From: a virus
Reading direction: 5' to 3' (one strand)
Length of the DNA stretch: 64,000 bases
IMG/VR virus record: IMGVR_UViG_3300025875_000008
Span: 12,538-76,537 of that record
Both the position numbers and the translations under genes were made by a program. Below the pieces are notes generated by a model. It was not told where the DNA came from and searched no databases. It saw nothing but the letters and a program-made list of their open reading frames with translations. This document shows, piece by piece, positions 4,982 to 46,679 of this stretch (the first letter of the stretch is position 1; every line of letters begins with the position of its first letter).

Positions 4982-5027
4982 TGCCAGTTTCGTTGACATT
5001 ATGTGCCACTTATACTAGCGTAAACCC
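4982..5027 (+). promoter_or_regulatory. promoter with operator-like array, leaderless start
   Basis: TGCCAG-N5-TTGACA(-35)-N5-TGCCAC; 17-nt spacer; TAGCGT -10; 6 nt to ATG 5028. Confidence 0.75.
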
Positions 5028-5231
5028 ATGAACATAGCGCCTACCCCTTGGCGAGTTCGGTACTCCGTACAAGAGGCAGCCGAAATGCTGGGGCTACACG
5101 TAGACACCGTTCGCCGGCGCATCCGAACCAAGGATCTGCACATCGTCCGCGACGGTGGACGAGTGTTCATCACCCACGACGAGCTGGTCCGATATGGCAC
5201 CCGCGACTTCGAACTTCCCGAGGCGGGCTGA
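5028..5231 (+). CDS. excisionase-type HTH protein
   Basis: YSVQEAAEMLGLHVDTVRRRI...GGRVFI. Confidence 0.85.
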   Translation: MNIAPTPWRVRYSVQEAAEMLGLHVDTVRRRIRTKDLHIVRDGGRVFITHDELVRYGTRDFELPEAG

Positions 5232-27822: not shown

Positions 27823-30800
27823 GTGGTGGCTGACAGGTCTATCAGGGTTGTTCTGACCGCTAACGCTTCCGGTTTCATCTCCACCTTGGGTCAGGCGTCA
27901 AACGCTTCCCGCAAGTTCGGTCAGGACCTGTCGGGTTCGGTCAGCAAGAACGAGCAGTCGTTGAACAAACTGGCTGGCGTCACGGGTCTTGTGGGCGCCG
28001 GTCTGGTTGCTGGTATCGGTGGCGCTGTCCGGTCTGCTGCCGACTTCGACCAGGCCATGTCGCGGGTTGCTGCGTCCGGTGACGACGCCCGGGGGAGTCT
28101 TGAGAGTTTGCGCGACGCTGCGATTGATGCTGGCGCGAAGACGTCGTTCTCCGCTGGTGAAGCCGCTGCCGGTATTGAGAACCTGGCGAAGGCTGGTGTG
28201 TCGGCCAGCGACATTCTTGGTGGCGGCTTGGCTGGCACCTTGGATTTGGCGGCTGCCGGTGAACTGAATGTGGCCGACGCTGCCTCGATTGCGGCGACCG
28301 CGATGACGCAGTTCAACCTGACCGGTGAACAACTGCCGCATGTGGCTGACCTGCTCGCTGCCGGTGCAGGTAAGGCGCAGGGGTCCGTTGAGGACATGGG
28401 CGCCGCGTTGAAGCAGTCCGGTTTGGTGGCGTCGTCTTTTGGGCTGTCCATTGAGGACACGTCGGGCACCCTGGCGGCGTTTGCTGATGCCGGTCTGATT
28501 GGGTCGGATGCTGGCACTTCGTTCAAGACGATGTTGCAATCGCTGGCGAACCCTTCCAAAGAGTCGGCGAAGCAGATGCAAGAGTTGGGCATTGCCGCGT
28601 ATGACGCGCAAGGCAACTTTGTGGGCATCACCGATCTGGCCGGTCAGTTGCAGACGCGCATGTCGAAGCTCACCCCGGCTGTGCGTGATCAGGCGATGGC
28701 GCAGATTTTCGGGGCGGATGCTGTCCGCGCCTCGAATGTTCTGTACAAAGAGGGCGCTGCTGGCATTCAGGGCTACATCGACCAGACGAACGATGCTGGC
28801 TACGCGTCGCGGGCTGCCGGGATCCTGCTCGACAACTTGAACGGTGACCTTGAAGGGCTCAAGGGGTCGTTTGAGACGGCGATGATCGGGCTCGGTGAGG
28901 GCGCTAAAGGTCCACTGCGGACGCTGGTTCAGTCGGTCACGGATGCGGTGAACGCGTTTAACAGACTGGATGATTCCACGAAGGGCACCGTGCTGTCGGT
29001 GGCCGCTGTTGGCGCCGGTGCCCTGCTGGGGTTGGCTGGTATCGCCAAGCTCGCCATCGGCGTGAATGACACCATCACTGCGTTTCGTGGTTTGCAGACC
29101 AACTCGCCGAAGGCTGCTGACGCTATCGGCAAGGTGGGTAAGGCTGCTGGTGTCGCCGCGATCGCGTTGACCGGGTTGCAGGTTCTCGGAAACATCGTTG
29201 ACAACATGAACGGTAAGGCTGTCCCCTCGCTGGAGGCGGTGCAGTCGTCGTTGATCGGAGTCGCGAGTGGAGCGGTCGGCGCAACTGCGTCGATGGACGC
29301 CTTCTTCACTGTCACCAATAAGCAGGCGGGCGTCTATGGTGACGAAGCGGTCAACGGTCTCGCAGATTCTCTTGAACGCTTACTGAGCAAGTCCAGCGGC
29401 GAGAAGATCAACGACTGGGGCTCGGACCTTGTCGATAGTCTCGGCGGTCCGGCAAGTGTCGCGAACGTACTGCGGGAAAAGTTCGACGCCGTTGACTCGT
29501 CGCTGACGAAGATGGTTTCCTCCGGTCAGGCCGAGGAGGCGGCGAAGTCGTTCCGATCGTTGCGTGACGCGGCTGAGCAGCGCGGCATCGGCATTGACAA
29601 GCTGATCACGCTGTTCCCTGATTACCAGGCGACGCTGACCGCTGAAGCGAACAGCCTGAAGGTGACCACGCTGTCGGTGGAGGATTACGCCGATTGGATG
29701 GGTGGGAAGGTTCCGCCTGCGATTGAGGCGGCTCGGCGGGCGTCGAAGGGTGCCACGGGTGCGTTTGAGTCGCAAGCGTCGAACACGACCTTGTTGAAGG
29801 ACGCCACCAAGAAGCTCGAGTCCGCTCAGGACGCGTTGGCAAAAGAGACGCAGACTGTCATTGACAAGTTCTCCATTTTGCGGGATGGCGCCCTCGATCA
29901 GGAGGACGCGAACAACGCGTGGGAACGGTCAATTGACGATGTAAAGGATGCGGTCAAGCAGAACGGTAAGGCGCTCGACTCGACCAGTGAGAAGGGTCGG
30001 GCGAACCGCGAGGTCGTGATTCGCATGATCCGGGCGTTGAACGACAAGACGACCGCCGACTTTAAGAACACAGAGAAGACGAAGGGGCTCGATAAGGCCA
30101 CTGGGGAACTGTCGGGGAAGATGAAGGTCGGCGAGCAGCGGATTCGGGATGCTGCGAAGGCTGCCGGGTTGAACACCCGTGAGACGCAGAAGATGATCGA
30201 CAAGTTCCTGAAGACACCTAAGCAGGTGAAGACGGACATCAAAACGCCGGGCATGAAGGATGCGCAGAACAACGTTGACTCGTTGGGGCGCAAGATCGGC
30301 GGTTTGAAGTCGAAGGAAGTCAACGTCACGGCGAACATTGACGTCAAGCAGACCGACATTGCTCGTGAGATCACGAAGAAGTACGGCAAGTACGCGAAGA
30401 TTCCTGGGCTGGCGACTGGTGGCCCAATTCAGAACTGGTCTGGGCAGGCGGTCAAGGGCAAAGACACTGAGCTGATTGTTGCCGCGTACGGCGAGCACAT
30501 GCTGCCCGCTGACGAGGTGGATGCGTTGGGCGGGCATGAGGGTGTGTACCGGCTGCGCAACGCTGTGAAGCAGGGCAAGATTCGTGGGTTCAAGGATGGT
30601 GGCGCGGTCGAGCGCAGTGTCATTGTGAATGGTTCTGCGTCTGATGTGCCTGGCATTGACGGGTTGATGACGGTGTGGTCGACCGCTGGTGAGCACATGG
30701 GCAAGGCTGCCGCGAACTACATTGAGCAGGGCGCTGAGAAGGCGTTGATGGCGATGGCGCTCGGGGCGGCTGAGGCGACGTCCGGTGCTGATGGGAATTA

Positions 30801-32100
30801 CGCGGCAGGCAAGGCGGGTCGTTACGGCGATCAGCGGTTCAACGCGGAGCAGCTACGGAACGCGGCGATCATCGCTTCGGTGGGTGCGAGCATGGGCGCG
30901 CACGCACAAAGGATCGGTATTGCTACCGCGATTGTTGAGTCGGGTCTGCGCAACCTGTCCTATGGCGACCGTGACTCGGTGGGCTTGTTCCAGCAACGTG
31001 CCCCGTGGGGTTCGTTCGCGGCCCGGACGAACCCGCGCACGTCGGCGGACATGTTCTTCCACGGCGGGCGTGGTGGTCAGCGCGGGCTGGATGACATTCC
31101 GGGTTGGCGGTCACGTTCGCTCGGTTCGGCAGCCCAGGCTGTGCAGGTCAGCGCGTTCCCCGGTCGTTACCAGACGCACGCTGATGAGGCTGCCGCCATT
31201 CTGAGGGGTTTGAAGTCGGGTGACGGTGGCACGTCTAACCCTGGTGGTGGGACTGGTCAGTCGAAGGGTGGCGGTAAGTACCGTCCGGTCAGGGGTGGCC
31301 GGGTTGGCTCGCGTTACCACGGCAGCCCGCCAGCTATCGACATTGGTATCGGGGTCGGGAACACGGTGTACGCCGGCCATGACGGTCGGGTGACGATCTC
31401 GCGGGATCTGCGCGGCAATCAAAGTCAGGGGTATCGGTCGTACGGTCGGTACATCACGATCAGTGGTGACGGGTACAAAACGTTGTACGCCCACTTGTCG
31501 TCCCGGGGTGTTTCCGCTGGGCAGACGGTGCGTGGTGGTCAGCCGATTGGCCGGTCAGGTAATACGGGCAACTCGACCGGACCTCACCTGCACTTCGGGG
31601 CAACGGGTGCTCGGGCTGGGTCGTTCTTCGCGAACGGCGGCATGGTGGGTGGTTGGTCGCCTCACTCGAAGGCAGACAACATCCCGATCATGGCAACAGC
31701 CCGGGAGTTCATGCAGCCGGTGCGGGCGGTCAACTATTACGGCGCTGACGCGATGGAGGCGTTGCGGCGGCTCAGTGTTCCGCGTGAGGAGTTGCGGCGA
31801 CTGATCGACAAGAAGGCGTCAACAGTCAAGAACGTTGACTTTTATCACGACCTTGCCGGTATGGCTGACGGCGGTTGGTTGCGGGACCGTCGCGTCATGT
31901 CTCCGAACTATGCGACTGCTGCACCGTTCTACCGGACAGCGGTCGGCATGAGTGGTCAAACGGCCAGTTCGCAGGCTCAGGGGCGCGGGAAGCTCGCGGA
32001 CAGCATCACGATTCAGGGTTACACCGCTGACGATGTGGCCCGGCAGATTGTGACCAGGGAACGGCGTGAGGACGCTTTGCATCCGGTGTGGGTGTCTTGA
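27823..32100 (+). CDS. tape measure protein with lysozyme-like and M23 peptidase domains
   Basis: Helical TP901-type core; IVESGLRNL.YGDRDSVGLFQQR; AHL and GNTGNSTGPHLHF M23 motifs. Confidence 0.93.
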   Translation: MVADRSIRVVLTANASGFISTLGQASNASRKFGQDLSGSVSKNEQSLNKLAGVTGLVGAGLVAGIGGAVRSAADFDQAMSRVAASGDDARGSLESLRDAAIDAGAKTSFSAGEAAAGIENLAKAGVSASDILGGGLAGTLDLAAAGELNVADAASIAATAMTQFNLTGEQLPHVADLLAAGAGKAQGSVEDMGAALKQSGLVASSFGLSIEDTSGTLAAFADAGLIGSDAGTSFKTMLQSLANPSKESAKQMQELGIAAYDAQGNFVGITDLAGQLQTRMSKLTPAVRDQAMAQIFGADAVRASNVLYKEGAAGIQGYIDQTNDAGYASRAAGILLDNLNGDLEGLKGSFETAMIGLGEGAKGPLRTLVQSVTDAVNAFNRLDDSTKGTVLSVAAVGAGALLGLAGIAKLAIGVNDTITAFRGLQTNSPKAADAIGKVGKAAGVAAIALTGLQVLGNIVDNMNGKAVPSLEAVQSSLIGVASGAVGATASMDAFFTVTNKQAGVYGDEAVNGLADSLERLLSKSSGEKINDWGSDLVDSLGGPASVANVLREKFDAVDSSLTKMVSSGQAEEAAKSFRSLRDAAEQRGIGIDKLITLFPDYQATLTAEANSLKVTTLSVEDYADWMGGKVPPAIEAARRASKGATGAFESQASNTTLLKDATKKLESAQDALAKETQTVIDKFSILRDGALDQEDANNAWERSIDDVKDAVKQNGKALDSTSEKGRANREVVIRMIRALNDKTTADFKNTEKTKGLDKATGELSGKMKVGEQRIRDAAKAAGLNTRETQKMIDKFLKTPKQVKTDIKTPGMKDAQNNVDSLGRKIGGLKSKEVNVTANIDVKQTDIAREITKKYGKYAKIPGLATGGPIQNWSGQAVKGKDTELIVAAYGEHMLPADEVDALGGHEGVYRLRNAVKQGKIRGFKDGGAVERSVIVNGSASDVPGIDGLMTVWSTAGEHMGKAAANYIEQGAEKALMAMALGAAEATSGADGNYAAGKAGRYGDQRFNAEQLRNAAIIASVGASMGAHAQRIGIATAIVESGLRNLSYGDRDSVGLFQQRAPWGSFAARTNPRTSADMFFHGGRGGQRGLDDIPGWRSRSLGSAAQAVQVSAFPGRYQTHADEAAAILRGLKSGDGGTSNPGGGTGQSKGGGKYRPVRGGRVGSRYHGSPPAIDIGIGVGNTVYAGHDGRVTISRDLRGNQSQGYRSYGRYITISGDGYKTLYAHLSSRGVSAGQTVRGGQPIGRSGNTGNSTGPHLHFGATGARAGSFFANGGMVGGWSPHSKADNIPIMATAREFMQPVRAVNYYGADAMEALRRLSVPREELRRLIDKKASTVKNVDFYHDLAGMADGGWLRDRRVMSPNYATAAPFYRTAVGMSGQTASSQAQGRGKLADSITIQGYTADDVARQIVTRERREDALHPVWVS

Positions 32101-32118
32101 TGGGAAGGTGGTGACGGG

Positions 32119-33063
32119 ATGCCGATCCTTGGTGGTATCCCGGTTCGCACCCCTCGACCGCCGCGTGTTGATCCGTTTGAGGACAGCCGCACGTTGGCGT
32201 TCCGGTCGTTGGATGGTACGGCGTTCATGGAATTCACCGGCAACGAGTTCTTCGACCTTGACGGGGTTGAGGGCTTGGACTTACCGCCGCGTGAAGTGAT
32301 CCGCGAGTCCATGCCGAACCTGGACGGCACCCGTTTGCGTGAGGTGCGGACAGGTGAACGTCAGGTGTTCCTGCCGTTCTGGCTATCGTCCACGTCCAGC
32401 CACAGTAAGTACTTGGACCGTCGTGACGAGCTGGCATCCCTGTTTAACTATCGCGGACTAAACCTGTCCGCGACCGATGGCACCTTTGATCTGGTGGCGA
32501 ACTCGCTGCGTGGTGAACGGTCGCTGCGTTGCGTGTACCTCGACGGTATGCCCGGGTCGAACATGACCGACAATTCGGGGGCGTCGTGGGAATCTCTGGG
32601 GCTCACCTTCCTCGCCTGTCGCCCTTACTGGTCGGGGGCGCGCTGGTCGACACCGACGATCCAGCGCCCATCGGGTGGTTCATGGGGTGTGTCGTGGCCG
32701 TACCAATTGTCGTCCGCGCAGGCGCTCGGCAGCGGCATCCCGGTCACTGTTGGCGGCGATGTCCCCTCATGGCCGACGATCGACTTGGTTGGGCCAGCAT
32801 CGGCAGCCTCGGTAACAGGGCCGGGTTTGTCTGTGTCTATTGCGGGCGGTCTGGCTGCGGGTGAGACGGCGCGGATTGTGACGGATCCGCGTGGCCGCAC
32901 CGCCTCGTTCGGTGGAGTCAAGGACTGGTCGCGGGTGGCACCCACCGACCGTTACCGCCCGCTGATGCCAGGTGTGCAGGAGCTGTCGATCGTGCTTGTG
33001 GGTGCGACTGATGCAACGTCGGCTGTTGTTTCTGGGGACAGTCTGTTTGAGCGGTGGTGCTGA
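32119..33063 (+). CDS. distal tail (Dit-like) protein
   Basis: Follows TMP; R.V.LP, RSLRCVY, GDVPSWPTI. Confidence 0.75.
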   Translation: MPILGGIPVRTPRPPRVDPFEDSRTLAFRSLDGTAFMEFTGNEFFDLDGVEGLDLPPREVIRESMPNLDGTRLREVRTGERQVFLPFWLSSTSSHSKYLDRRDELASLFNYRGLNLSATDGTFDLVANSLRGERSLRCVYLDGMPGSNMTDNSGASWESLGLTFLACRPYWSGARWSTPTIQRPSGGSWGVSWPYQLSSAQALGSGIPVTVGGDVPSWPTIDLVGPASAASVTGPGLSVSIAGGLAAGETARIVTDPRGRTASFGGVKDWSRVAPTDRYRPLMPGVQELSIVLVGATDATSAVVSGDSLFERWC

Positions 33064-34545
33064 ATGTGGACCGCTCGAGCGCGTGACCAAAGCCTGAACC
33101 TGTTCGACCCGATCGAGTACACGACAGCGACACTGGTCGAAAACTATGGACTACCGGACATGCTGTCACTCACTGGCAACGTGCACGATCTGCGACCCGG
33201 CATTGGTCCGAATGCTGGTGTGGTGCTGTACGACGACAGTGGTGCTCGCAGGTTCAACGGGTTCCTGACTTCGGCTGAGCGGCTTGGGAACGGGACCGCG
33301 AATCTGATCTACGCATCCGACGACGCGAACCTGTGGCAGCGGATCGTCTGGCCCAGTTACAACGCCGCCTGGACAGCGCAGACGGCTGCGTATGACGTGC
33401 AGACGGGTCCGGCTGAGACCAGGCTGTTGACGTACATCAACCGCAACTTGGGACCGATCGCTTACACCCCGTCACCGTTCAGCGTGACCACCACTCGGCA
33501 GGTGCTGCACACAAGAATCCCGACGTCGCAGGGTCGCGGGCCGGTCGCGAAAACATCAGCCCGGTTCAACGTGCTCGGCGAATTGGTGTCACAACTTGCG
33601 GAGTCGGCGTCGTTGCGGGTACAGATCGTCCTCAACTATGACGGCTTCACCCCGTGGCTGGATGTGACGGTCACTGAGGTTCCTGACTTGTCGTCGTGGG
33701 CGCGGTTCGGTACTCCCGAGGCGTCAGGGCCGGGTGTGCTGGGTGCGGACTGGCGGTACAAGTACGAACAGCCGAAGGTGACCACGGTTCTGTCAGCGGC
33801 TGGCGGTGAAGGCAAGGACCGCCTGCTGAACTCGCTGACTGACTTGGACCGCAACAATCTGTGGGGTCGGCGGATTGAGCAGTTCATCGACCAACGCAAC
33901 ATCGGCAGTCAGATCGGCGCCCGTGAAGAACTGAAGAAGGCGACGGGCGCACGGGATGTGGCGTTGAAGGCGCGCAACGGCCAGTTGCGCATGAGGAACT
34001 TGGCCCAGAACGCAAAGGACCAAGCACAGGCCGCGTTGGACGCCAACCCGGGCAACGCTGCCGCCACAACGCGGCGAGATGCTGCGGTGGATGCGCTCAA
34101 CGAAGCCATCTCTGACTACAACCAAGCCAACACCGAATACAACCAGACGGTCACCGACTACAACGCCGCTGTTACCGCTCTGCAAGCCGCCATCGCCTCC
34201 GACACCAGCGAGATCAACCAAGCTCTGGCTGATGCGATGGCGGAAGCGGTCGGGTTGACGGAAATCTCCGCCCCGTTGGGCGAGTCGGATCTGAACGTTG
34301 GCGGCACTGGCGGCACTGCGGGTGTTGATGTGCCGTTGGGTGCGCGGGTGTCTGTGGTGTTGGACGGGGAGACGGTGACGGAACGTATCCGGCAGATCAC
34401 CACAACCATTTCAGCCCAGTCGGGGCAGGAGACGGTGCACGTTGAGCCTGTCATCGGCACCCCTGATGCGGGGTTGGCGTCCCCGACGCAACGGCGTCTA
34501 GCTGCCGCTTTCCGGCGGATCAGTTCTGTTGAACGTAACCAGTAG
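33064..34545 (+). CDS. baseplate hub / Gp37-like minor tail protein with coiled-coil insert
   Basis: TTVLSAAGGEG, RRIEQFIDQR, C-terminal VTERIRQIT. Confidence 0.75.
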   Translation: MWTARARDQSLNLFDPIEYTTATLVENYGLPDMLSLTGNVHDLRPGIGPNAGVVLYDDSGARRFNGFLTSAERLGNGTANLIYASDDANLWQRIVWPSYNAAWTAQTAAYDVQTGPAETRLLTYINRNLGPIAYTPSPFSVTTTRQVLHTRIPTSQGRGPVAKTSARFNVLGELVSQLAESASLRVQIVLNYDGFTPWLDVTVTEVPDLSSWARFGTPEASGPGVLGADWRYKYEQPKVTTVLSAAGGEGKDRLLNSLTDLDRNNLWGRRIEQFIDQRNIGSQIGAREELKKATGARDVALKARNGQLRMRNLAQNAKDQAQAALDANPGNAAATTRRDAAVDALNEAISDYNQANTEYNQTVTDYNAAVTALQAAIASDTSEINQALADAMAEAVGLTEISAPLGESDLNVGGTGGTAGVDVPLGARVSVVLDGETVTERIRQITTTISAQSGQETVHVEPVIGTPDAGLASPTQRRLAAAFRRISSVERNQ

Positions 34546-35522: not shown

Positions 35523-36179
35523 ATGGCGCGTTACCTGTTCGCTTCAGCCCTGGTTGAGTTGCCCGGCAACATTGTCGCGGCAGGCATCCCGTTCTCGTTG
35601 TGGTCTGAGTTGCACGGCGGCACCCAGTACACGGACATCAAGGCGCCGGATGGTGTGACCAGCATTCCGTTGGTGATGGACGGCAACGGGGTCCGTCCTG
35701 AGCTGCGCGGCCCCGACAGCGTGAAAACGATGTATTGCGATGCCGGTGGCGGTGTGCGGTTTGAGATGTACGCCACCGATGAGCTGTCGTACATTCTCGA
35801 CCAGTTTCGGGTGTTGGCGTTCCAGTTCGGGCAGTTGGCGACGCAGGTCGACAACCTGGATTTGTCGGGTGGCGGCACTGGTGGTGGCGGGTTGCCGGTG
35901 GGCACCACGTTGGACCAGATCCCGAACGGTGCCGACCGGTTGGCGATGACGTACGCCGAACGGAACCGGATTGCTGGGTTGCCGTCATCGTTTTTGCAGT
36001 TGGGTACGACGGCGGGGACGGCGAAGGCTGGGAACTATAAGCCGACCCCGGCTGAGATCAGTGCGGTGCAGAATGTGAACGGTGCCCCGCGTTTGTGGGG
36101 GCGTAGCGCGTCGCAGGCGTTGCCTACGGCGGCTGAGGGTGCTGTTGACGGTGACTGGTTGTTCCGAGAGAACCCCTGA
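35523..36179 (+). CDS. tail fibre proximal protein
   Basis: DGNGVRPELRGPD, LQLGTTAGTAKAGN, DGDWLF terminus. Confidence 0.7.
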   Translation: MARYLFASALVELPGNIVAAGIPFSLWSELHGGTQYTDIKAPDGVTSIPLVMDGNGVRPELRGPDSVKTMYCDAGGGVRFEMYATDELSYILDQFRVLAFQFGQLATQVDNLDLSGGGTGGGGLPVGTTLDQIPNGADRLAMTYAERNRIAGLPSSFLQLGTTAGTAKAGNYKPTPAEISAVQNVNGAPRLWGRSASQALPTAAEGAVDGDWLFRENP

Positions 36180-37504
36180 TGCCGCTGTACCGGTACTCGA
36201 ACGGGGCGTGGAGGCAGGGCGCGTCTGTTCTGTACCCGAACACGTCCAGTGTTGAGGCGGCGTTGCCGACCGGCCCTGACTACATTCACTATGACGTTTT
36301 GAGGGCGCGGGCGACGCTTGGGGGCGCTGTCGACCCGGACTTGCAAACCGTGTTCGACACACTGGTTGAGCCGAAGATTGTCACCATGCCGCCTGGTGTG
36401 TTTGAGACGAAGCGGAAGTGGGGCAAGGCACCGTACTACTCGGGTGCGACCACACCGCAACGTCAGGCTGCGTTGTTGGTGCCGAAGGTTTGCCGTGGCA
36501 TTTGGGGGTCGGGGCGGGGTTCTGTTGGGTCCACGTCGGGCACTATCATCCGTGTCACCCCGATGACGTGCCAGTCAGCGTCTGAGGGTGGGTCGTGGTT
36601 TCAGACGGGCGGGTCAGGGTCGGGTGACTTCCTGCTGAAGAACCTGCACATTGAGGGCACCGAGCAGGGGAACCAGACGGCGGCGAAAGCCGACGCGCCC
36701 GGCTATGACGGGGTGTCTCGGAAACTGTTCACCAACTACTTTGAGCAGGGCAACCGAACGGGCCAGTACGTTGCTGAGGACATCCTGTCGAACGGGTCGT
36801 ACGGCAACAACGGTGCCCCTCCTGGGGAGACGTTCAACTTCCAGGTGTACAACGCCGACTATCACATTTTGCGCAGGGTGGAGACGGACGGTCGGCGTGC
36901 TGTGGGTGGGCCGTCGTTCTCGAGCGTGGGGATCACCGCCGGGAACTGTTACGGCGCCGAATGGTACGACTGTTGGGCGCATCACATCAACGCCAAGACG
37001 TACCACATGGTCTATTACCAGACGATGGCGTGTAAGACGTTCAACTGCCGCCTGGGTGACTCGTCCGATCTGGACGGGTACGGCGACTTCGGGGTGACGA
37101 ACCCCTCCCCCACCACTCCCGGGTTCACGGGTGGCGGGTTCAACCAGGAACGTGCCGGCGACTCTGAGCATTACGGGTTGAACATTTACAGCAACCGGAA
37201 GGGTCCGAACAACCCCGACAAGGGTGTGCATTTCAACCATTCCGGCGATGACTGGTCGCGGGCGTTCATCGGGGACACGATGCGGTTGGTTGACCACCAG
37301 TACTGCCTGATTCAGGACGCGACTTGGTTCAACCACTGGGGCAAGACCGGGAACCCGCTGTACGTGTCCACGTGGATTCCGTACAGCAGCAACCCGAACG
37401 CGATCACCGTCTCGCCGACCGTCATCAACAACGGTGTGCCGCAGCGGATCGCGTGGTCGCCACCGGGCTACTCACCGACCGTCCTCAGCCCCTACCAGAT
37501 GTGA
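36179..37504 (+). CDS. probable beta-helix (pectin-lyase-like) tailspike
   Basis: VTMPPGVF, GIWGSG..GTII entry pattern and Asn/Gly-rich repeats. Confidence 0.55.
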   Translation: MPLYRYSNGAWRQGASVLYPNTSSVEAALPTGPDYIHYDVLRARATLGGAVDPDLQTVFDTLVEPKIVTMPPGVFETKRKWGKAPYYSGATTPQRQAALLVPKVCRGIWGSGRGSVGSTSGTIIRVTPMTCQSASEGGSWFQTGGSGSGDFLLKNLHIEGTEQGNQTAAKADAPGYDGVSRKLFTNYFEQGNRTGQYVAEDILSNGSYGNNGAPPGETFNFQVYNADYHILRRVETDGRRAVGGPSFSSVGITAGNCYGAEWYDCWAHHINAKTYHMVYYQTMACKTFNCRLGDSSDLDGYGDFGVTNPSPTTPGFTGGGFNQERAGDSEHYGLNIYSNRKGPNNPDKGVHFNHSGDDWSRAFIGDTMRLVDHQYCLIQDATWFNHWGKTGNPLYVSTWIPYSSNPNAITVSPTVINNGVPQRIAWSPPGYSPTVLSPYQM

Positions 37505-37515
37505 GGAACTGACTT

Positions 37516-38427
37516 ATGGCCGTGAAGGGCTTGTACTTTGAGGGCGGCACTGAGGGTGCTGCGCTGACGCCGGCGAACACCGGTGCCGTTTCCATTTCGC
37601 TTCAGGGCACGTCGACCGCGAGGTTCCGGGGTTCGGCGAAACAGTCCGGTGCGTTCGGTGCCGAGTTCATCGCCGCAGCTTCGTCGTACTCGTTCGCCCG
37701 GGTCATCGCTGTGGCAGAGTCGGGGTCTGCGGCTGCCGCGTTGGAGTTCATCTGCCCAGCTTTGCCGACTGCGGTCGATAAGACGATCCTCGCGTTTCGG
37801 TCTGGTGGCACCACCCCCGCATCGTTGGCTGTGAATGCGGCCATCACCCCGTTGGGGAAGATACGGGTCCAGGCTGGCGCGGTGACCGTGGTCAACCCAT
37901 TCCCGACCGCGACGACCGGCGACAACGTCCTCGTTCCCGGCCAGTCGTACCTGCTCGAGATGCTGGTGTCGGGGCAGTCGGCGACGAACGGGCGTGTGGA
38001 GGCACGGCTCACCCGCAAGTCCTCAGGTGCGGTCATCGGGACGGTCCTGTCAACGACAGCGAACGTGACAACCAACCTCATCGGCGGCTGCGACTTCGGG
38101 GTGCTGCCCACCACGGACCAGTCGTACACACTGCTGCTGGATAACGCCCGGCTGATCGACAACAACCCGGTCGGTCAGTGGCCGGGCGCCTACGTAGCTG
38201 CGGCTGACCCGCTCACCGGTTCAGCGACAGTCACCCCCACGTCGGGGGTTGTTCCGTTCACGGTGACCGCTGTGATCACCACCGAGGGTGGGACGGGGAC
38301 CGCGAAGGTTTACACCTACAACTGGGGCGACGGGACTCCCGTAACGTCCAGCAGCTCGGCCACTGCCACCCACACCTACTCGGCTGCCGGTAACCAGAAC
38401 TGGACGTTCACGGCTGCGAACACCTGA
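37516..38427 (+). CDS. lectin/concanavalin-like domain + PKD protein
   Basis: FEGG start; C-terminal PTSGVVPFTV...YNWGDGT...THTYSAAG. Confidence 0.6.
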   Translation: MAVKGLYFEGGTEGAALTPANTGAVSISLQGTSTARFRGSAKQSGAFGAEFIAAASSYSFARVIAVAESGSAAAALEFICPALPTAVDKTILAFRSGGTTPASLAVNAAITPLGKIRVQAGAVTVVNPFPTATTGDNVLVPGQSYLLEMLVSGQSATNGRVEARLTRKSSGAVIGTVLSTTANVTTNLIGGCDFGVLPTTDQSYTLLLDNARLIDNNPVGQWPGAYVAAADPLTGSATVTPTSGVVPFTVTAVITTEGGTGTAKVYTYNWGDGTPVTSSSSATATHTYSAAGNQNWTFTAANT

Positions 38428-38843
38428 TGGCTAACGAGGACGTTTACAGCGACCTCTACCAGACCGCCGCTGGCGACATCTACAGCGACCTGTACGGGGT
38501 GCCGTCCAGCCTGGTGACGATGACCGGGACGGTGATTGCCACCAGCCCGGCCCCGACGCCTGGTGCTGGCGCGGTGACGATGACCGGCACGGTTATCGCG
38601 GAGTCGCCCACATCAGGTGAAACGGTCATCATGACCGGCACTGTGACCGCGCTCGCCGGTGAAGATGGCGACGACGTTGTGGTGTACCGGTTCCGTGATG
38701 GGCAGTGGCGCCCCGGGTCGTTGTATGTGCGAGTGCTCGGCAACTGGGTGAACGACCAAACGGGGACTGTCGTCGGCGGCGGCACCCCAACAGCTCGCGG
38801 GTACGGGCAAGGCTTGTACGGCGAAACCCCTTACGGAGGCTGA
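38427..38843 (+). CDS. repeat-rich minor tail/adaptor protein
   Basis: D(V/I)YSDLY x2, V(T/I)MTGTV x3, C-terminal GYGQGLYGETPYGG. Confidence 0.65.
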   Translation: MANEDVYSDLYQTAAGDIYSDLYGVPSSLVTMTGTVIATSPAPTPGAGAVTMTGTVIAESPTSGETVIMTGTVTALAGEDGDDVVVYRFRDGQWRPGSLYVRVLGNWVNDQTGTVVGGGTPTARGYGQGLYGETPYGG

Positions 38844-38849: not shown

Positions 38850-41801
38850 ATGGTGCGTCCTGTTCTTCCCGACGAAGGCGAAGCGAACTGGGATGACGAG
38901 CTTAACGCCGGCATCTTCTCGCTGGCCGACACCCTGGATGGGGTGGTTGCCCGCCTGGCATCGCTTGAGGTGCGGGTGAACAGTATTGCCCCCACCCCCG
39001 TCTATTCGGTGCCTGTGGCTGCGTTCACCGTCTCGCAAACGTCGGGGACTGCCCCGGTGACGGTGACGTTCACCGATCGGTCCACGAACACCCCGACCGG
39101 TTGGTTGTGGAACTTCGGCGACGGGTCCACATCAACTGTTCGGAACCCTACGCACACGTTCAGTTCTGCTGGTTCGTTCACGACGACACTGGTTGCCAGC
39201 AACTCGGCTGGGTCCAGTTCGAGCGGACCAACCCCCACCCCGCCGTCGCAGGTGATCACCGTGACGGCTGCCGCGACCGCAGCTCAGCCTGTCGCATCGT
39301 TCAGCGGAACCCCTGTCACCGGCTCGGCGCCGCTGTCCGTGTTCTTCACCGACACTTCCACGAACACCCCGACGTCGTGGCTGTGGGCGTTCGGTGACGG
39401 CACCACATCAACGGTGAAGAACCCGGCGAAGACGTATGCGACCGCAGGCACGTACACGGTGAGCCTGACTGTCGCCAACGCTGCCGGGACCGCACCCACG
39501 GCCACCCAAACCGGCTACGTGTCCGTTGGTGCGGCTACCACCCCCACCACGGGTTTGCGGGCTGCGATCTCCACATCTGCGCCGATGTACACCAACGCTG
39601 TGTCAGCGTTCCCGGTCGACACGAACCGAACCACCCTCAAAACGACGTCAACGGCAGCCCTGCCCACCAATGCATGGTTTGAGAACTTCATGGTTGGTTC
39701 TGGTCATCAGCCCGTCCAGTTCTTCCCGTACATGGCGAAGACGACCGTGACCGGGTTGGCGTTCTGCCAGGCACCGATCAACACCAGCTTCCCGAACTCG
39801 GTGCTGTCGACCATGCTCGAGTCGTGGAGTTTCGGTGCCGGGACTGCGCTGAACGCTGACACGGCAGGCCGGGTGACCGGGTTCACCGACCTGGGCTGCA
39901 CCCTGGCGTGGGCGACGACCTCGGGCGGCGGGACGATGACCGCCGACATTGTGCGCGGCATGGGCTATGTGACCATGCGGTACGGCACGCTGGTCCCGAA
40001 GATCACCACCATCCACGGCATCCTGACGATCAACGGTGTCGCGCCTGCCGGGACGGTGACCGGAACCAAGTTCAAGTTTGTTCTCAACAACGGGCAGACG
40101 TGGATCCTGTACGCGTCGTCGGCGATCTCACTGGCCTACGCGGGCACCACCCTGACCGGTTCGGCTGCGTTCACCGGCACCCTGCGGTTCGGGATCCTGC
40201 CCACAGGGGCCACAGAGTCAGTGCTGGACTCGTCCGCAACCGCCGTCCACACTGGCGGCACGGTCGGCTGGACAGTCTCCGGGAACACCGCCACAGAAAC
40301 GTTCACCTACACCTACACGGGTTCAGGGGCGCCGCTCAACTACACGCTGCCGCACCACCGGCCACGGTTGCAGAACGCCACCTACCCGACCGGGTTCACC
40401 CTCACCACTCTGCGCGGCCAAGTCCAGGCGGTCACGGGCAACCTGTGGACGATGCAGATCCCGTTGCCGTCTGTGAGCTGGAACAACCGCAACCCCATCC
40501 AGTCCGGTCGGCTCGCCGCGATCCAAACCGCTTTGACTGCTGATGCGTCGTTTGTGCCGCACACCAACGACCCGTACTTCGGCGGGAAGCAGATCGCGAA
40601 AGCTGCGCATCTGGCGTTGATCGCCGATCAGGTTGGGAACACGACCGTCCGCGACACACTGGTTGGGCGGCTCGAAACGGGTGTCAACGAGTACCTGACG
40701 AAGTTGCGGTACGAAACAGCGTGGGCGGGCATTGTGTCCGTTCCTGGGCTCACCGATCAGGGCGCCGACTTCGGCAACGGCATGTACAACGACCACCACT
40801 TCCACTACGGGTACACCATTTACGCCGCCGCTGTGCTGGTGAAGCTGCGGCCCGCCTGGAACACGGTCAGCAACAGGGCGAAGATCCACGACCTGATCCG
40901 CGACTTCGCGAACCCGACCAGCAACGACCCGTACTTCACCCCGATGCGGAACTGGGACTTCTACGAAGGCCATTCGTGGGCTGCCGGGCATTTTGAGTTC
41001 GGCGACAACCGCAACTCTGAGTCCACCTCGGAGGGGGTGAACGCCTACTACGGGATTCATCTGTGGGGGGTGGCGACCGGCAACGACCAGTTGACGAACT
41101 TGGGCCGGATCCTGATGGCTGAGGAAATCTCTGCCGCGCAGACGTACTGGCAGGTGAAGCAGGCCGAGACGATCTATCCGCAGCCGTTCCGCCAGAACGG
41201 TGTGATCGGCATCGTCTGGTCGAACAAGGTGGATGTGGCGACATGGTTCGGCGGGCAGTACGAGTACATCTTGGGCATTCAGGAACTGCCGACGAACCCG
41301 ACCACTGAGGTTCTGATCCGCAAGGACTGGTACGCGGAGATTTGGCCGACGAGGGTCAACCCTCTGTGGTCGCGTACTTCGGTGTGGCGTGCAGCGGTCA
41401 TCAACGGCGGCTCAGGCTATGTGGGCGCATCCAACTCAGGCGCACCCGCCTTCCAGGCGTACACGGACGGCATGACCGCACAGGGCGGCTCAGGGACCGG
41501 GTTGCAGTTCAACTGCAACATTGCAGGTGGGGCGATCGCTGAGGTTTACATCCGCCAACCGGACGGGCGCGGGTCGGGCTACGTCGACGGCGAAACGGTC
41601 ACCCTGAACGGGTCCGGCGGCACTGGTTGCACCGTCCGCATCTGGACGGAACCTGAGGACGGCTGGAAAGGGCTGCTCCTCGGCGGGCACGCCCTCAACA
41701 ACCCATCGGAGGCGTGGACGAAAGCTCTTGAGTTGACCGCATACGACGACGGCTCATCGAAGACGCAGTTGCTGTACTTCATCGGCACCCAGACCGGATA
41801 G
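38850..41801 (+). CDS. anchor + 2xPKD + GH81 endo-beta-1,3-glucanase
   Basis: PKD WNFGDG and WAFGDG; LPTNAWF, YNDHHFHYGY, FYEGHSWA, SESTSE, TWFG, GIQELP. Confidence 0.88.
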   Translation: MVRPVLPDEGEANWDDELNAGIFSLADTLDGVVARLASLEVRVNSIAPTPVYSVPVAAFTVSQTSGTAPVTVTFTDRSTNTPTGWLWNFGDGSTSTVRNPTHTFSSAGSFTTTLVASNSAGSSSSGPTPTPPSQVITVTAAATAAQPVASFSGTPVTGSAPLSVFFTDTSTNTPTSWLWAFGDGTTSTVKNPAKTYATAGTYTVSLTVANAAGTAPTATQTGYVSVGAATTPTTGLRAAISTSAPMYTNAVSAFPVDTNRTTLKTTSTAALPTNAWFENFMVGSGHQPVQFFPYMAKTTVTGLAFCQAPINTSFPNSVLSTMLESWSFGAGTALNADTAGRVTGFTDLGCTLAWATTSGGGTMTADIVRGMGYVTMRYGTLVPKITTIHGILTINGVAPAGTVTGTKFKFVLNNGQTWILYASSAISLAYAGTTLTGSAAFTGTLRFGILPTGATESVLDSSATAVHTGGTVGWTVSGNTATETFTYTYTGSGAPLNYTLPHHRPRLQNATYPTGFTLTTLRGQVQAVTGNLWTMQIPLPSVSWNNRNPIQSGRLAAIQTALTADASFVPHTNDPYFGGKQIAKAAHLALIADQVGNTTVRDTLVGRLETGVNEYLTKLRYETAWAGIVSVPGLTDQGADFGNGMYNDHHFHYGYTIYAAAVLVKLRPAWNTVSNRAKIHDLIRDFANPTSNDPYFTPMRNWDFYEGHSWAAGHFEFGDNRNSESTSEGVNAYYGIHLWGVATGNDQLTNLGRILMAEEISAAQTYWQVKQAETIYPQPFRQNGVIGIVWSNKVDVATWFGGQYEYILGIQELPTNPTTEVLIRKDWYAEIWPTRVNPLWSRTSVWRAAVINGGSGYVGASNSGAPAFQAYTDGMTAQGGSGTGLQFNCNIAGGAIAEVYIRQPDGRGSGYVDGETVTLNGSGGTGCTVRIWTEPEDGWKGLLLGGHALNNPSEAWTKALELTAYDDGSSKTQLLYFIGTQTG

Positions 41802-41812
41802 GACACCTAACG

Positions 41813-43444
41813 ATGGCGCTTCCCACAGACCGGGCGACAGGTCAGATCGTGCAAGCCGACGACATCAACTCCATCGCTGCCACCGTGAACGATGCAGCCA
41901 CTTTGCTGGCTGGGGTGATTAGTCGCCTCAACGCGTTGGAGACTGACGGGCCAGCGCAAACCACCACCGTCACAGCGACCACCGGCAACGCAACAGTCAC
42001 CGTGAACTGGACAGCTGCGGTCGGTGCCACCGGGTACACGGTTGCCCTAGACCGCATTGATGGTGGCGCGTCCGGTGTGACCCCCGCCAGCAAAACCGCG
42101 TCACAGCTCACCCACACGTTCACCGGGCTGACCAACTCGGTCGCCTACCGGGCCACCGTGACGATCGGCCCGTCCGGGGCGCAACGCACCGTCCAAGCCA
42201 CTCCCACCGCTGGCGCGGCCAACATTACGGTGACGAAAAGCGAAGGCGACGGGCAGGTGGTCATCAGTTGGACTGCCGCCACTGACGCCACCGGCTATCT
42301 GGTGGGGCGCAACGGCACTGACAGCAACGGTTCTGGACCGTGGTCGACAACTGACCCGGCGACCGCCCGCTCGAGGGCGTTCCTGAACTTGGTCAACGGC
42401 ACCGCCTACAACTTCACTGTCACCCCACTGCCGGGCGGCACTGCGGTGACAGTTACCGGCACCCCAGTCGCTGGCACTGGCACCACACAACCCACCGCCC
42501 CGTCAGGGACCGGCACAGTGTGGCTGTCCGGTGCAGGCGACGACCAGGCGAACAACACAGCCGGGGGCGGGTTCGGGTCGTTCCGTGGCGAACCAGCCAC
42601 GTTCGCCCGCTGCTGGGCTGACGCATCCACCGCAGCCATGACCGGACTCGACATGATGATGGCCTACAAGGTGTCGAACTGGTCAGGTGTGCTCGACATG
42701 GCGATCGGCGGTCCCGGTCGCGCAGGTGACTCGTGGGCGTCCGCAGCAACCGGATCCCTAGACGGGACGTGGCGTGCTCAGTGCCAGAAGATCAACGCGA
42801 ACTGGTGGTCCAACTGCAAAGGTGTGCACCTGTCAATGGCGCACGAACTGTCAGGCAACTGGTACCCGTGGTCGGTGAACTCCGGCAACGTCGCCAACTT
42901 CAAAACAGCCTGGCGCCGGTTCTACAACATCGTGCAGGAGGAACTGGTCGCCAAAGGCAAGAACGCGAAGGTGACACTCTGCTACAACTTCGACACCACC
43001 TCAGACATTTCGGTGCAACAGATCGACCCGGGCGCTGCCTACTACAACGTGGTCGGTGTCGACTTCTACAATATGTGGTGGGGTGGCACGGCGGCGTCCG
43101 GGTTGAACACCCAGTCGTTGTGGGATGCGAACCTGAACGCAATGGACGGGTCCAGCCCGAAAGGGATTGGCGCCTGGTTCACCTACGCCGCCAGCATTGG
43201 GAAACCCCTGTCGATCCCTGAGTGGGGAACCAGCCCACAAGCGACCGTCGAAGCTCCCCTGTTCGTCACGAACATGCGGAACTACCTTGCCAGCAAAGCA
43301 CCCGCAGACCCGTACAACCCTGGCGCTGGGAAGTGCGCTGGTGATGCGTATTTTAACACTTGGGCGCAATGCCGGCTGTACCCCAACACCAGCCTGCCGA
43401 ACACTGCCGCCGCTTACAAGGCGGCGAAATGGGGCGCGGTGTGA
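41813..43444 (+). CDS. anchor + 2xFN3 + GH26-like glycoside hydrolase
   Basis: HELSGNWYPW (acid/base), PGAAYYNVVGVDFY, KPLSIPEWG (nucleophile). Confidence 0.8.
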   Translation: MALPTDRATGQIVQADDINSIAATVNDAATLLAGVISRLNALETDGPAQTTTVTATTGNATVTVNWTAAVGATGYTVALDRIDGGASGVTPASKTASQLTHTFTGLTNSVAYRATVTIGPSGAQRTVQATPTAGAANITVTKSEGDGQVVISWTAATDATGYLVGRNGTDSNGSGPWSTTDPATARSRAFLNLVNGTAYNFTVTPLPGGTAVTVTGTPVAGTGTTQPTAPSGTGTVWLSGAGDDQANNTAGGGFGSFRGEPATFARCWADASTAAMTGLDMMMAYKVSNWSGVLDMAIGGPGRAGDSWASAATGSLDGTWRAQCQKINANWWSNCKGVHLSMAHELSGNWYPWSVNSGNVANFKTAWRRFYNIVQEELVAKGKNAKVTLCYNFDTTSDISVQQIDPGAAYYNVVGVDFYNMWWGGTAASGLNTQSLWDANLNAMDGSSPKGIGAWFTYAASIGKPLSIPEWGTSPQATVEAPLFVTNMRNYLASKAPADPYNPGAGKCAGDAYFNTWAQCRLYPNTSLPNTAAAYKAAKWGAV

Positions 43445-43995
43445 CGATCGTTCCGAAAGTCGACCACACACCTGGCGCGATGAGTAGGAGGGCGCGCATC
43501 TACATCATCGCGGGCGGCTCAAGGCACTTCCTGATCGGGCTCACCATCGTCCTGTTCCCGTGGCTGTACTCATCCGCCGCGTTCATCCCCGTATTCAACC
43601 TGGTCGACCAACTGCTATGGGGATGCATCATGCTCATCGTCGGCGCCGTGTGCCTCGTCGGTGCGATCACCCGCAAAGCCGACATTGCCCGGGCGGGCAT
43701 GGTCGGATCCGCTGTTGTCACCGCAGTGCTAGCGGTCGGGCTACTACTCGGCCTCATCAACGTGTGGATCATGTTCGGGCAAAACATTGGCGGGCCAGCC
43801 CTACTCGACCTCATCCGAGACCGGCCCCGCATGTTCCCTGTCGAACTTGCCAAAAAGATTGTCGCCCCGCCGTCACCCTTCCTTCCACTGCTGTTGCTTT
43901 CAGTAACAGTGAAGGACTTCACGATGTGCGCCCAACCGTTGCGTGTTCCCGTTGAGGACGATGCGCCGCGAAGGCTCAAAGTCCAGGAGGCGTAG
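43441..43995 (+). CDS. multi-TM membrane protein (lysis region)
   Basis: Four or more hydrophobic segments. Confidence 0.65.
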   Translation: MTIVPKVDHTPGAMSRRARIYIIAGGSRHFLIGLTIVLFPWLYSSAAFIPVFNLVDQLLWGCIMLIVGAVCLVGAITRKADIARAGMVGSAVVTAVLAVGLLLGLINVWIMFGQNIGGPALLDLIRDRPRMFPVELAKKIVAPPSPFLPLLLLSVTVKDFTMCAQPLRVPVEDDAPRRLKVQEA

Positions 43996-44610: not shown

Positions 44611-44988
44611 GTGATTGCAGCCGTCATCTTGGCGCACCTTGTAGGCGACTACTTGATCCAATCCGACTGGATGGCGTCAGAGAAGGTGAAGCGTTTATGG
44701 CCCGCCGTGGTGCACGGCGTGACGTACACGCTGCCATTCCTGTTCGTCACACAATCACCATGGGCGCTGCTGGTCATCGCAGGGACGCACATCGTGATTG
44801 ACCGCTGGCGCCTCGCCAAGCATGTCACCTGGCTAAAGAATCAGGTGGCGCCGAAAGCGTTCCGACCACCGCACACTGCTACCGGCTACAGCGATGACAA
44901 GCCGCAATGGATGACCGTGTGGCTGATGATCCTGGCCGACAACACGCTGCATCTGATCATCAACGTCGCCGCTGTGAAGTGGCTGTGA
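44611..44988 (+). CDS. DUF3307-like membrane protein
   Basis: LAHLVGDYLIQSDWMA..K, HG..Y, THIVID, ADNTLH. Confidence 0.8.
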   Translation: MIAAVILAHLVGDYLIQSDWMASEKVKRLWPAVVHGVTYTLPFLFVTQSPWALLVIAGTHIVIDRWRLAKHVTWLKNQVAPKAFRPPHTATGYSDDKPQWMTVWLMILADNTLHLIINVAAVKWL

Positions 44989-46679
44989 TGGCTGACGCAC
45001 CTGACGTTGGATGCTGGAACGTCTACCGCGACAACACCGATGGCGTCCCCGGCATCAAGCGCGGTATCAACAAGCTGATCGACCGTGGCGCCGACGTGAT
45101 CTGCCTACAAGAACTGTCGAACGACGACTGGTGGCGTGAAGTCCGCGACTGGATGGAAAGCAAGGGTTGGTGGGTTCACCCGCTGAACGTCGCCATCCCC
45201 ATCTACGTGAACGCAGCCAAGTACGACATCCGATCATCGAAGAACACGGTCGTGTTCGACCCGTCCAAGACGGGCGAGATCCGGGTGGAGAAGTCCGGCG
45301 CCAACGAAACGTTGGGCTACAAGTCGTTCACCGAAGTCGTGGCGCAACGCAAGGGCACCCAGGACTTCACCGCGATCCTGAACAACCACATCGTGCCCAC
45401 CATCGAAAACGGTGACGGGCAGTTCATCAACCCGCTGCGCCTCAAGTACGCCAAAGCGCAGATCGTCGCCGTGGGCACCAAAGCCAAGCACTACATCGGC
45501 GAAGGTCTGAACGTCGCCGTCACCGCCGACTGGAACATCTCAAGCAGCACCCCAGCCGGCGCCCAACTCCGCGCATGGATGGCCGACTACGGGCTGACGT
45601 CCGCGCAACACACCCGGGGCCCGTTCAACACCCACGGGGTCCGCGAAATAGACGACCTGTACACCAACGCCGCCATCGGCAGCATGTGGCGCATCGGCAC
45701 CGGAAACGAACGCGGCTACACCAAAGACGGGTCCGACCACAACCCAATCGTGGTGAACCTCGACCCAAAAGGATCGGCGCCAAGCGCGCCAAACGAAGGG
45801 ACTGACGACGATATGGCTACAAGCCAGAACGGTTGGACCGCTGCCTCATCCACGGCAGGCATCCCCGGCGGCGTTACTAGCATCATTCCGAAGGGCGCAC
45901 CTGACACGAAGCTGACGGTTCGGAAGGGCGACGTTGCCACCGTGTTGCAGTACGTGGTGGACGAGTACCAGGCGACCGTTGAGGACATTGACCTGTACAC
46001 GAAGGGAACCGGGGACGACTGGGGATTCGCACCCCGACCCGTGCGAGGCAGCTCAACCACCCTCAGCAACCACGCATCCGCCACCGCGATCGACCTCAAC
46101 GCCACCCGTCACCCGCTCGCAGTGAAAGCGTCCAGCACGTTCACAGCCAAGCAACTGACGGCCATGCGCGCCATCAAATCGAGGCTGCGCAACGCCGTCC
46201 AATGCGGGGCGTTCTACTCGGGCAGACCGGACGGCATGCACTGGGAGATCAACGTCGGCTCGTCCACCCTGGCGAAGGTCGCTGACGACATCCGGTCCGG
46301 CAAGATCAAGCGCACCGGAGAAGCCGTGAAGCCTGCCACGTCCACGCCGAAACCACTCGACCACAAGCCGCTGATCTCGCTCAAAGCGGTTCAGGCTGGC
46401 ATCAAGTCCGGCACCGAACTGGTGGAAGGTCTCGACGGGTCGCAGTACCAGGAAATGCTGAACCGCTACACCGGGTTCAAGCTCGTCACCGATGGGGTGC
46501 TGGGTCGCAACACCCGCGTGGTGACCGCACAAGCCCAGTTGAAGGTCGCCAAAGCCAACGGCAACAAGACCCTGACCATCGCCGACTGCTGGCCCAACAG
46601 CGGCTACAACAGCGACCTTGACGGCATCCCCGGCGCTGAACTATTCAAAGCGTTGGGCGTCGACAACTCCGACTCATGA
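44988..46679 (+). CDS. endolysin: EEP domain + M15 peptidase + PG-binding-like C-terminus
   Basis: EEP motifs WNV, DVICLQE, NNH, ADWN, IDDLY, SDHNP; M15 SQNGW, SNHASATAIDLN, DGMHWE; DGVLG.NT. Confidence 0.82.
   Translation: MADAPDVGCWNVYRDNTDGVPGIKRGINKLIDRGADVICLQELSNDDWWREVRDWMESKGWWVHPLNVAIPIYVNAAKYDIRSSKNTVVFDPSKTGEIRVEKSGANETLGYKSFTEVVAQRKGTQDFTAILNNHIVPTIENGDGQFINPLRLKYAKAQIVAVGTKAKHYIGEGLNVAVTADWNISSSTPAGAQLRAWMADYGLTSAQHTRGPFNTHGVREIDDLYTNAAIGSMWRIGTGNERGYTKDGSDHNPIVVNLDPKGSAPSAPNEGTDDDMATSQNGWTAASSTAGIPGGVTSIIPKGAPDTKLTVRKGDVATVLQYVVDEYQATVEDIDLYTKGTGDDWGFAPRPVRGSSTTLSNHASATAIDLNATRHPLAVKASSTFTAKQLTAMRAIKSRLRNAVQCGAFYSGRPDGMHWEINVGSSTLAKVADDIRSGKIKRTGEAVKPATSTPKPLDHKPLISLKAVQAGIKSGTELVEGLDGSQYQEMLNRYTGFKLVTDGVLGRNTRVVTAQAQLKVAKANGNKTLTIADCWPNSGYNSDLDGIPGAELFKALGVDNSDS

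Follow-up and report, generated by a model that had tools for sequence, protein, structure and literature searches.

The stretch of DNA analysed here (hereafter the window; 64,000 nt, bases 12538-76537 of the linear, 85,091-bp IMG/VR virus record IMGVR_UViG_3300025875_000008, estimated to be 87% complete) is part of an uncultured, siphovirus-like actinophage. The last two long genes of its tail block encode proteins, P0001 and P0002, in which a glycanase domain (GH81 in the former, GH26 in the latter) is carried behind a short N-terminal segment, here termed the handle, and two Ig-like domains. These genes are described below together with a GH16 domain in a third protein (P0122), a probable beta-helix protein and a small protein encoded directly upstream of the GH81 gene; their positions in the window are as follows.

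38850..41801, + strand: GH81 gene P0001 (983 aa), encoding a handle, two PKD domains and GH81
38850..39002, + strand: N-terminal handle of P0001 (residues 1-51), acidic, with no signal-peptide features
39012..39524, + strand: two PKD (Ig-like) spacers of P0001 (about residues 55-127 and 145-225; PKD 1.4e-19, PKD_4 5.9e-28)
39642..41798, + strand: GH81 catalytic region of P0001 (N domain, residues 265-542; C domain, residues 558-983)
40791-40793, 41019-41021 and 41031-41033, + strand: codons of D648, E724 and E728 of P0001
41361..41657, + strand: insert of ~100 aa with GGSGY-type repeats (residues 838-936) within the GH81 C domain
41813..43444, + strand: GH26-family gene P0002 (543 aa), encoding a handle (residues 1-45), two fn3 domains (~48-130 and 137-220, by Pfam) and a TIM-barrel catalytic domain (225-543)
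42845-42847 and 43220-43222, + strand: codons of E345 and E470 of P0002
13963..14697, + strand: C-terminal domain of P0122 (residues 835-1079), GH16, laminarinase-like
36179..37504, + strand: beta-helix protein of 441 aa, probably of pectate-lyase type, 59% identical to a product of phage contig L006
38427..38843, + strand: 138-aa protein directly 5' of GH81, with a triple YG peptide at its C-terminus and three repeats inside

A first-pass annotation of the window, made from its letters and open reading frames (ORFs) alone, had reported full GH81 motifs behind two PKD domains, and profile searches bore this out. Pfam places the GH81 N domain at residues 265-542 (1.7e-43) and the C domain at residues 558-850 (4.7e-90), PF03639 and PF17652 score 149.5 and 302.8 bits against a curated cut-off of 25.6, and the motifs NDHHFHYGY and ESTSE are both present. 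The best solved relative is Lam81A of R. miehei (RmLam81A; 4k35, 1.9e-71), in which D475, E553 and E557, which we take to be the catalytic Asp and two Glu, stand opposite D648, E724 and E728 of P0001; the latter are invariant in 16/16 relatives. Judged by these matches, P0001 is an intact member of GH81, a family (CAZy) for which endo-beta-1,3-glucanase is, to our knowledge, the sole known activity. The insert at residues 838-936 is confined to the phage clade P0001-P0015 and returned nothing from Pfam or PHROGs; its structural look-alikes in the ESM Atlas are nearly all domains of phage virion proteins (template-modelling (TM) score 0.71-0.75), a likeness that, in so short a piece, can serve as a lead only. 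By inspection, neither P0001 nor P0002 shows signal-peptide features.

With the Pfam GH26 model (PF02156), P0002 gives a marginal match (21.5-23.1 bits vs a cut-off of 20.2). An exhaustive HMMER search found 1928 relatives, and in a 36-sequence alignment of the catalytic part E345 (within AHE) and E470-W471 (within PEWG) are invariant (36/36), with 26 of the 36 aligned family members matching PF02156. Against the PDB, the 36-sequence profile produced a full-domain match to the GH26 lichenase CtLic26A (1.5e-14), with GH26 mannanases next; nearly all matches were GH26 chains, the few exceptions lying at E-values of at least 0.015. The six best Foldseek matches of the AlphaFold2 (AF2) model of the catalytic domain (pLDDT, the predicted local confidence score, 95) were all CtLic26A entries (5e-15; TM 0.68/0.78), the seventh was a fusion construct containing the CtLic26A domain, and the best mannanase reached 2e-8. 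E345 and E470 align with the catalytic motifs of CtLic26A. From profile and predicted fold, the P0002 barrel is a member of GH26, closest to this lichenase, in keeping with the GH26 motifs that had been seen in the first pass behind two FN3 domains (two fn3 by Pfam). The hidden Markov model searches then proposed as one check came out in favour of the GH81 and GH26 assignments, and the misalignment of catalytic residues that was to refute them was not seen, D648/E724/E728 and E345/E470 each aligning with their counterparts in solved enzymes.

The GH16 motif EIDFPE had been attributed to the gene at 11461-14700 as a whole. The GH16 domain is real, and it makes up residues 835-1079 of the 1079-aa product P0122, a PhoD-like + fn3 + GH16 protein. 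The motif supplies E962, D964 and E967, of which E962 and E967 are invariant in 34/34 sequences. PF00722 scores 19.5 bits on the window domain alone (cut-off 22) and 43 bits on its homologue in P0017, which is 48% identical, and among the best 120 of 651 homologues all but one carry PF00722. A profile of the domain matched beta-glucanases only in the PDB, and its AF2 model (pLDDT 96) had endo-1,3(4)-glucanases and laminarinases as top Foldseek matches (2e-13), with other GH16 subfamilies close behind the laminarinases in the ranking. By these comparisons the C-terminal domain of P0122 is a GH16 domain, predicted to be laminarinase-like. The beta-helix protein of the first pass, the 441-aa ORF at 36179-37504, found no match in Pfam or PHROGs; its Atlas feature score of 0.96 to pectate-lyase-type beta-helix clusters makes it a probable protein of that type, a designation to be taken as a lead only.

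In addition, an N-terminal domain of ~210 aa is common to two PhoD-like paralogues of the window (11461-12100 and 14820-15450) and recurs three times in two large proteins of phage contig L007 (499-1215, 5558-5974 and 6401-6913), one of them with PhoD, beside a GH81-GH16 fusion. It may be a module that the enzyme set has in common for attachment or binding.

The same families come together in other phages. An adjacent GH81+GH26 pair is present in two of them (contigs L006 and L106), and GH16-GH81 fusions are represented by P0009 and P0015, with GH16 N-terminal, and by P0017 (GH81, beta-helix, fn3, GH16), the last two domains of which are 48% identical to those of P0122. A 107-kb phage (L003) has GH81 together with a GH16 ORF and a C-terminus that resembles GH26 (31% identity over 459 aa). 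L007 contributes one more GH16, a Beta_helix protein and a giant protein that bears PhoD. Because of this recurrent co-occurrence and fusion we regard GH81, GH26 and GH16 as a set; with a lichenase and laminarinases as nearest relatives it leans towards beta-glucans, as the first-pass annotation had proposed. TROVE (Ro60-like) genes were also observed in three GH81-bearing phage contigs (L003:6593-8239, L008:23049-end and L106:12613-14271).

GH81 is rare in phages, where the first-pass annotation had called it very unusual. A tblastn search of 50,697 GenBank phage records found no relative of the GH81 domain, the GH26-like domain, a GH16 domain of this kind or the beta-helix ORF, and when GenBank phages were searched with the region and with each enzyme by megablast and tblastn, the sole match was one to PKD only. 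A pattern scan of 2.9 million IMG/VR contigs yielded five GH81 loci, one of them (L010) with a terminase, and within the literature collection searched no paper connected GH81 with phages. Another IMG/VR contig (L011:7261-12520) carries a tandem pair of distantly related GH81 genes (33-36% identity to P0001), the tested neighbours of which had no Pfam match.

An index of 5.8 billion proteins contained a tight group of metagenomic P0001 relatives (48-72% identity). In a FastTree phylogeny these 20 GH81 sequences form one clade (support 100), sister to a long-branched Saccharimonadales sequence and placed among the GH81s of Myxococcota and Flavobacteriales; phage context was checked for 7 of the 20 (P0003 to P0007, P0009 and P0017). 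The first-pass annotation had looked to phylogeny for donors, and whilst the tree provides these neighbours, a recent capture from an actinobacterial host was rejected, as Actinomycetota GH81s show only ~30% identity and occupy the opposite deep branch. In a Candidatus Saccharimonadales metagenome-assembled genome (MAG), a tandem pair of GH81 + Big_3_5 genes lies among housekeeping genes (G6PD, 6PGD, GT4) on a 390-kb contig (L022:9596-15980), and one of the pair is the long-branched sister of the phage clade. Saccharibacteria are epibionts of Actinomycetota, and therefore this type of GH81 may be common to a parasite and to phages that exploit the same hosts.

The setting of the two glycanase genes in the window is defined by the following neighbours.

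27823-32100, + strand: tape measure protein (TMP) gene, 1425 aa, tail module
32119-33063, + strand: Dit-like gene, tail module
33064-34545, + strand: minor tail gene, tail module
37516..38427, + strand: 303-aa protein with a C-terminal PKD domain, conserved 5' of the anchored GH81 in contigs L002 (31%) and L006 (41%)
about 43480-44459: two membrane-protein genes, between the glycanase genes and the endolysin gene
44907..46679, + strand: endolysin (M15 peptidase), marking a lysis cassette downstream of the glycanase and two membrane-protein genes

The order runs from TMP, Dit and the minor tail gene through more tail-block ORFs to the beta-helix protein, the PKD protein and the 138-aa protein, followed by GH81, GH26 and the lysis genes; the tail module (27823..34545 onward) has the glycanase genes as its end. 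P0001 starts 6 nt past the preceding stop codon and 9 nt downstream of a Shine-Dalgarno sequence (GGAGG), and 11 nt separate the GH26 gene from the gene before it. Over 31-48 kb of the window, a promoter and terminator scan returned sites no more numerous than in shuffled sequence. With respect to the endolysin ORF, residues 96-285 (window 44907-45800) are 27% identical to a segment of a large M23/NlpC_P60 protein with a weak Exo_endo_phos match (L006:31-564), and a phosphoesterase-like module accompanies wall-degrading proteins in both the window phage and L006.

Glycanases were found inside a tail or baseplate block in the window, in L002, which is syntenic with it, in the contig of P0123, in L006 and in L106. 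P0123 (69% identical to P0002 over its full length) is encoded by the third gene past the tape measure and Dit genes. L006 has, in order, Baseplate_J (8e-11), a weak Tail_P2_I match, GH81 (P0007) and a protein 73% identical to P0002. In P2-type operons the fibre gene stands after gpJ and gpI, and the fibre N-terminus docks on the J/I wedge; the L006 GH81 occupies the fibre slot of such a baseplate operon. The same contig also encodes the beta-helix ORF of the window (59% identity) and its 303-aa ORF (41%). The order in L106 is collagen-like, Mtd_N, PKD protein, 189-aa FG protein, GH81 and GH26 homologue, and both L105 and L106 have a PKD protein at the position equivalent to that of the window 303-aa protein. 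In phages of 107-117 kb (L003 and L008), a GH81 lacking the handle comes after a homologue of the podophage GP4 fibre I gp80 (3e-11). Tail linkage of the glycanases, as claimed in the first pass, is thus supported by their position in five independent gene contexts; homology is silent on it, since the handles match nothing annotated, and the 'phage-type anchor' of that annotation likewise has gene context on its side and no annotated homologue.

The P0001 handle is conserved in P0003, P0004, P0005 and P0007, and the handles have a loose layout in common: a Pro-rich start, W-[GD]..[LI]-[NR], and then an RL..LE helix. The handle is exchangeable: in the GH26 protein of L106 its first half is of the GH81 type. 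The 138-aa protein encoded directly 5' of P0001 carries the triple YG peptide ARGYGQGLYGETPYGG and ends in GYGQGLYGETPYGG. Exactly one ORF with a triple [YF]G end is present at each handle-bearing GH81 locus (5/5); it lies directly 5' of GH81 in 4/5 and two forward genes upstream in L105, and in L006 it encodes the P2-I-like baseplate protein. Across 12 phage loci the ending occurs in 5/984 six-frame ORFs of at least 80 aa, which cover all five handle loci, and no ORF of the loci with a handle-less GH81 has it; the background in 80 bacterial GH81 loci is 1/5236 ORFs. By this co-occurrence, the protein with the [YF]G tail is a candidate adaptor, or socket, on which the handles would dock. The small proteins of this kind (window 38427-38843, L002:9637-9999, L105:3415-3705 and L106:5374-5943) also resemble one another at the N-terminus, where those of the window and L002 read MA-D/N-x-DVY, and in having three short T/A/V-rich repeats inside; the next protein of L105 (492 aa, 3741-5219) opens with the same repeats.

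As to the host, the terminase and capsid genes show ~71% DNA identity to Arthrobacter phages, and because the module-level relatives of the window phage infect Arthrobacter, Streptomyces, Microbacterium and Gordonia, an actinobacterial host is indicated. Endolysin and minor-tail searches lead to differing actinobacterial genera, and prophage TerLs with 74% and 68% identity turned up when TerL was searched in 401 genomes from the order to which a Frigoribacterium genome belongs. Beta-1,3-glucans are made within this phylum: Cellulomonas flavigena has a curdlan glycocalyx (PMC3544764), and ~30% of P. freudenreichii strains have a (1->3,1->2)-beta-glucan capsule (PMC12191393). In five actinobacterial loci (L054, L056, L059, L081 and L086, each at position ~7.4-8.8 kb; from Microbacteriaceae, Propionicimonas and an Actinomycetota MAG assigned to no rank below phylum) GH81 is preceded, 1-2.5 kb 5', by a GT2 homologue (32-39% identity, 1e-69 to 1e-78); they belong to a seven-locus clade, in which L050 and L074 have much shorter upstream flanks. 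The trio GT2, HlyD-like protein and GH81, with the HlyD-like gene in the middle, is also found on an IMG/VR contig (L012:6874-11905). The combination of a cellulose/curdlan-synthase-like GT2 with GH81 is a candidate operon for beta-1,3-glucan synthesis.

Taken together, we consider it probable (roughly 60%) that the two genes specify virion-borne depolymerases, in the tail-fibre slot of an actinophage, of a beta-1,3-glucan coat made by the host, an estimate that extends to the mounting of the enzyme set by a handle and socket system. The handle (~45-50 residues) would oligomerise and dock on the tail, its partner most likely being the [YF]G-repeat peptide at the C-terminus of the small product of the gene directly upstream, and two Ig-like spacers (PKD or FN3) would bear an ordinary CAZy catalytic domain as the outermost part. 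Beta-1,3-glucan would be cleaved by GH81, and beta-1,3 or mixed-linkage glucan or related bonds by the GH26 and P0122 GH16 domains, which both lean that way at 13-19% identity to solved enzymes; the probable beta-helix enzyme, encoded three genes upstream of GH81, would add to the set. Acting together, the enzymes may strip a beta-glucan capsule or exopolysaccharide made by the host, so that the tail tip reaches the wall.

Several observations weigh against this. The (alpha/alpha)6 and TIM barrels of the two proteins differ from the trimeric beta-helix typical of tailspike depolymerases. The handles of P0001 and P0002 had no homologue in PHROGs at E<=1, tblastn of both against the 50,697 phages at E<=10 gave chance-level matches only, and so did residues 1-48 of P0002 against the word index of 5.8 billion proteins. 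Moreover, the GH26 handle is unlike the GH81 handle, and there is a single YG-peptide protein for two handle-bearing proteins. Identity to solved enzymes, at ~18%, is too low to tell mannan, beta-1,3-xylan and mixed-linkage glucan apart as GH26 substrates or to fix the specificity of the GH16 domain. The host is placed no more finely than Actinomycetota, and the genomes with TerL-related prophages contained no GH81 and no close P0002 relative. Finally, the glycanase genes also adjoin the lysis cassette in three loci (the window, L002 and L105), and therefore position alone is compatible with a role in exit.

This last point bears on an alternative in which the proteins are soluble late or lysis accessory enzymes that dissolve a glucan matrix at burst and free the progeny, by analogy with the free forms of phage depolymerases or with LysB as an enzyme for an extra envelope layer. 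GH81 does lie between tail genes and holin-like and endolysin genes in the window, L002 and L105, the lack of a signal peptide in P0001 and P0002 is consistent with release by lysis, and the extra phosphoesterase-like domain of the endolysin makes envelope-directed accessory activities a theme of this phage. However, the GH81+GH26 pairs of L006 and L106 come after baseplate or fibre genes and not beside membrane or lysis proteins, P0123 is encoded by the third gene past the tape measure, and a handle, Ig-like spacers and a co-occurring [YF]G protein are hard to square with a free enzyme; we consider this role unlikely. Slightly less likely again is an action on foreign beta-glucan (fungal or plant wall, or mixed biofilm), be it as auxiliary genes that feed the host or for passage of the virion. 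GH81, GH16 and GH26 are families classically tied to the breakdown of biomass, Myxococcota and Flavobacteriales, outside the presumed host phylum, have the nearest cellular GH81s, and the closest solved GH81 is fungal. Against this, the fibre-slot position and the handle/socket pairing favour a structural role, and a metabolic role outside the cell would need lysis because a secretion signal is lacking. The phage GH81 clade is old, monophyletic and has its own insert, and is therefore not a recent capture of a catabolic gene, and Actinobacteria can themselves make beta-1,3-glucans. The first-pass suggestion of digestion of fungal or plant walls is less well supported, as nothing points there and a host-made beta-glucan coat is the more economical target. 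It is very improbable, in turn, that the domains are merely lectin-like glucan-binding receptor-binding modules in which hydrolysis is lost or irrelevant: phage receptor-binding proteins are often derived from enzymes, and Ig-like spacers and handles would suit an adhesin, but the catalytic residues are invariant in GH81 (16/16), GH26 (36/36) and GH16 (34/34).

Depolymerase-bearing tails are well known for phages of capsulated Gram-negative pathogens and have hardly been studied in those of Actinomycetota. If the glycanases are virion parts, they would be a sequence-level sign that coats of beta-1,3 or mixed-linkage glucan govern phage adsorption to uncultured soil actinobacteria. The finding also offers a docking rule open to test, in which the handle binds the [YF]G peptide; glucanases that are new and specific, among them a GH81 whose insert is peculiar to phages; and, in GH81 + GH26-like + GH16, a marker set for metagenomic phages of glucan-coated hosts. 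A wider and distinctly more doubtful possibility is that many soil Actinomycetota wear a curdlan-like coat, made by an operon of GT2, adaptor and GH81, which acts as a first phage barrier or receptor; a lineage-spanning group of actinophages would answer with the GH81 + GH26 + GH16 toolkit, and a plug-and-socket mounting of handle and [YF]G peptide, which Saccharibacteria, as parasites of these hosts, may also have, would allow any enzyme to be swapped onto siphovirus or myovirus baseplates.

Among known systems, the nearest to P0001 is RmLam81A of Rhizomucor miehei (4k35, 5xbz), whose three-domain GH81 core is alignable to residues 341-836 and 936-980; CtLam81A (6fop) and BH0236 (5t49) are other, bacterial GH81s of solved structure. 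In contrast to these, P0001 is encoded by a phage, has a handle and two PKD domains in place of a signal peptide or carbohydrate-binding module, and contains the ~100-aa C-domain insert specific to the phage clade. The counterpart of P0002 is CtLic26A, the GH26 lichenase domain of Clostridium thermocellum endoglucanase H (2vi0, 2v3g, 2bvd), which it resembles in a (beta/alpha)8 barrel over the whole domain and in the aligned positions of the acid/base (HE..G.WYPW) and nucleophile (E[WF]G); identity is only ~18%, however, and the P0002 domain stands behind a fibre handle and two FN3 domains. With regard to mounting, the P2/Mu-type baseplate (gpJ, gpI and fibre gpH) is matched by the L006 GH81 after Baseplate_J and the weak Tail_P2_I match, whereas the window has a siphovirus-type tip (TMP, Dit) and its [YF]G peptide is on the 138-aa protein rather than on a gpI-like protein.

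Virion-associated depolymerases, such as the P22 tailspike and the K1F endosialidase, offer the closest functional parallel, and we used the virion-associated polysaccharide depolymerase KP34gp57 of a Klebsiella phage for comparison (PMC10653864). The window proteins, likewise encoded in a tail module, would resemble it in an N-terminal part for binding the particle and a C-terminal part for cleaving glycan, and the presumed job, the opening of a surface glycan layer, would be the same. Whereas most known examples come from phages of Gram-negative bacteria and are beta-helix or beta-propeller trimers, the window enzymes combine classical GH81, GH26 and GH16 folds with Ig-like spacers and are proposed to act on a beta-glucan of Actinomycetota.

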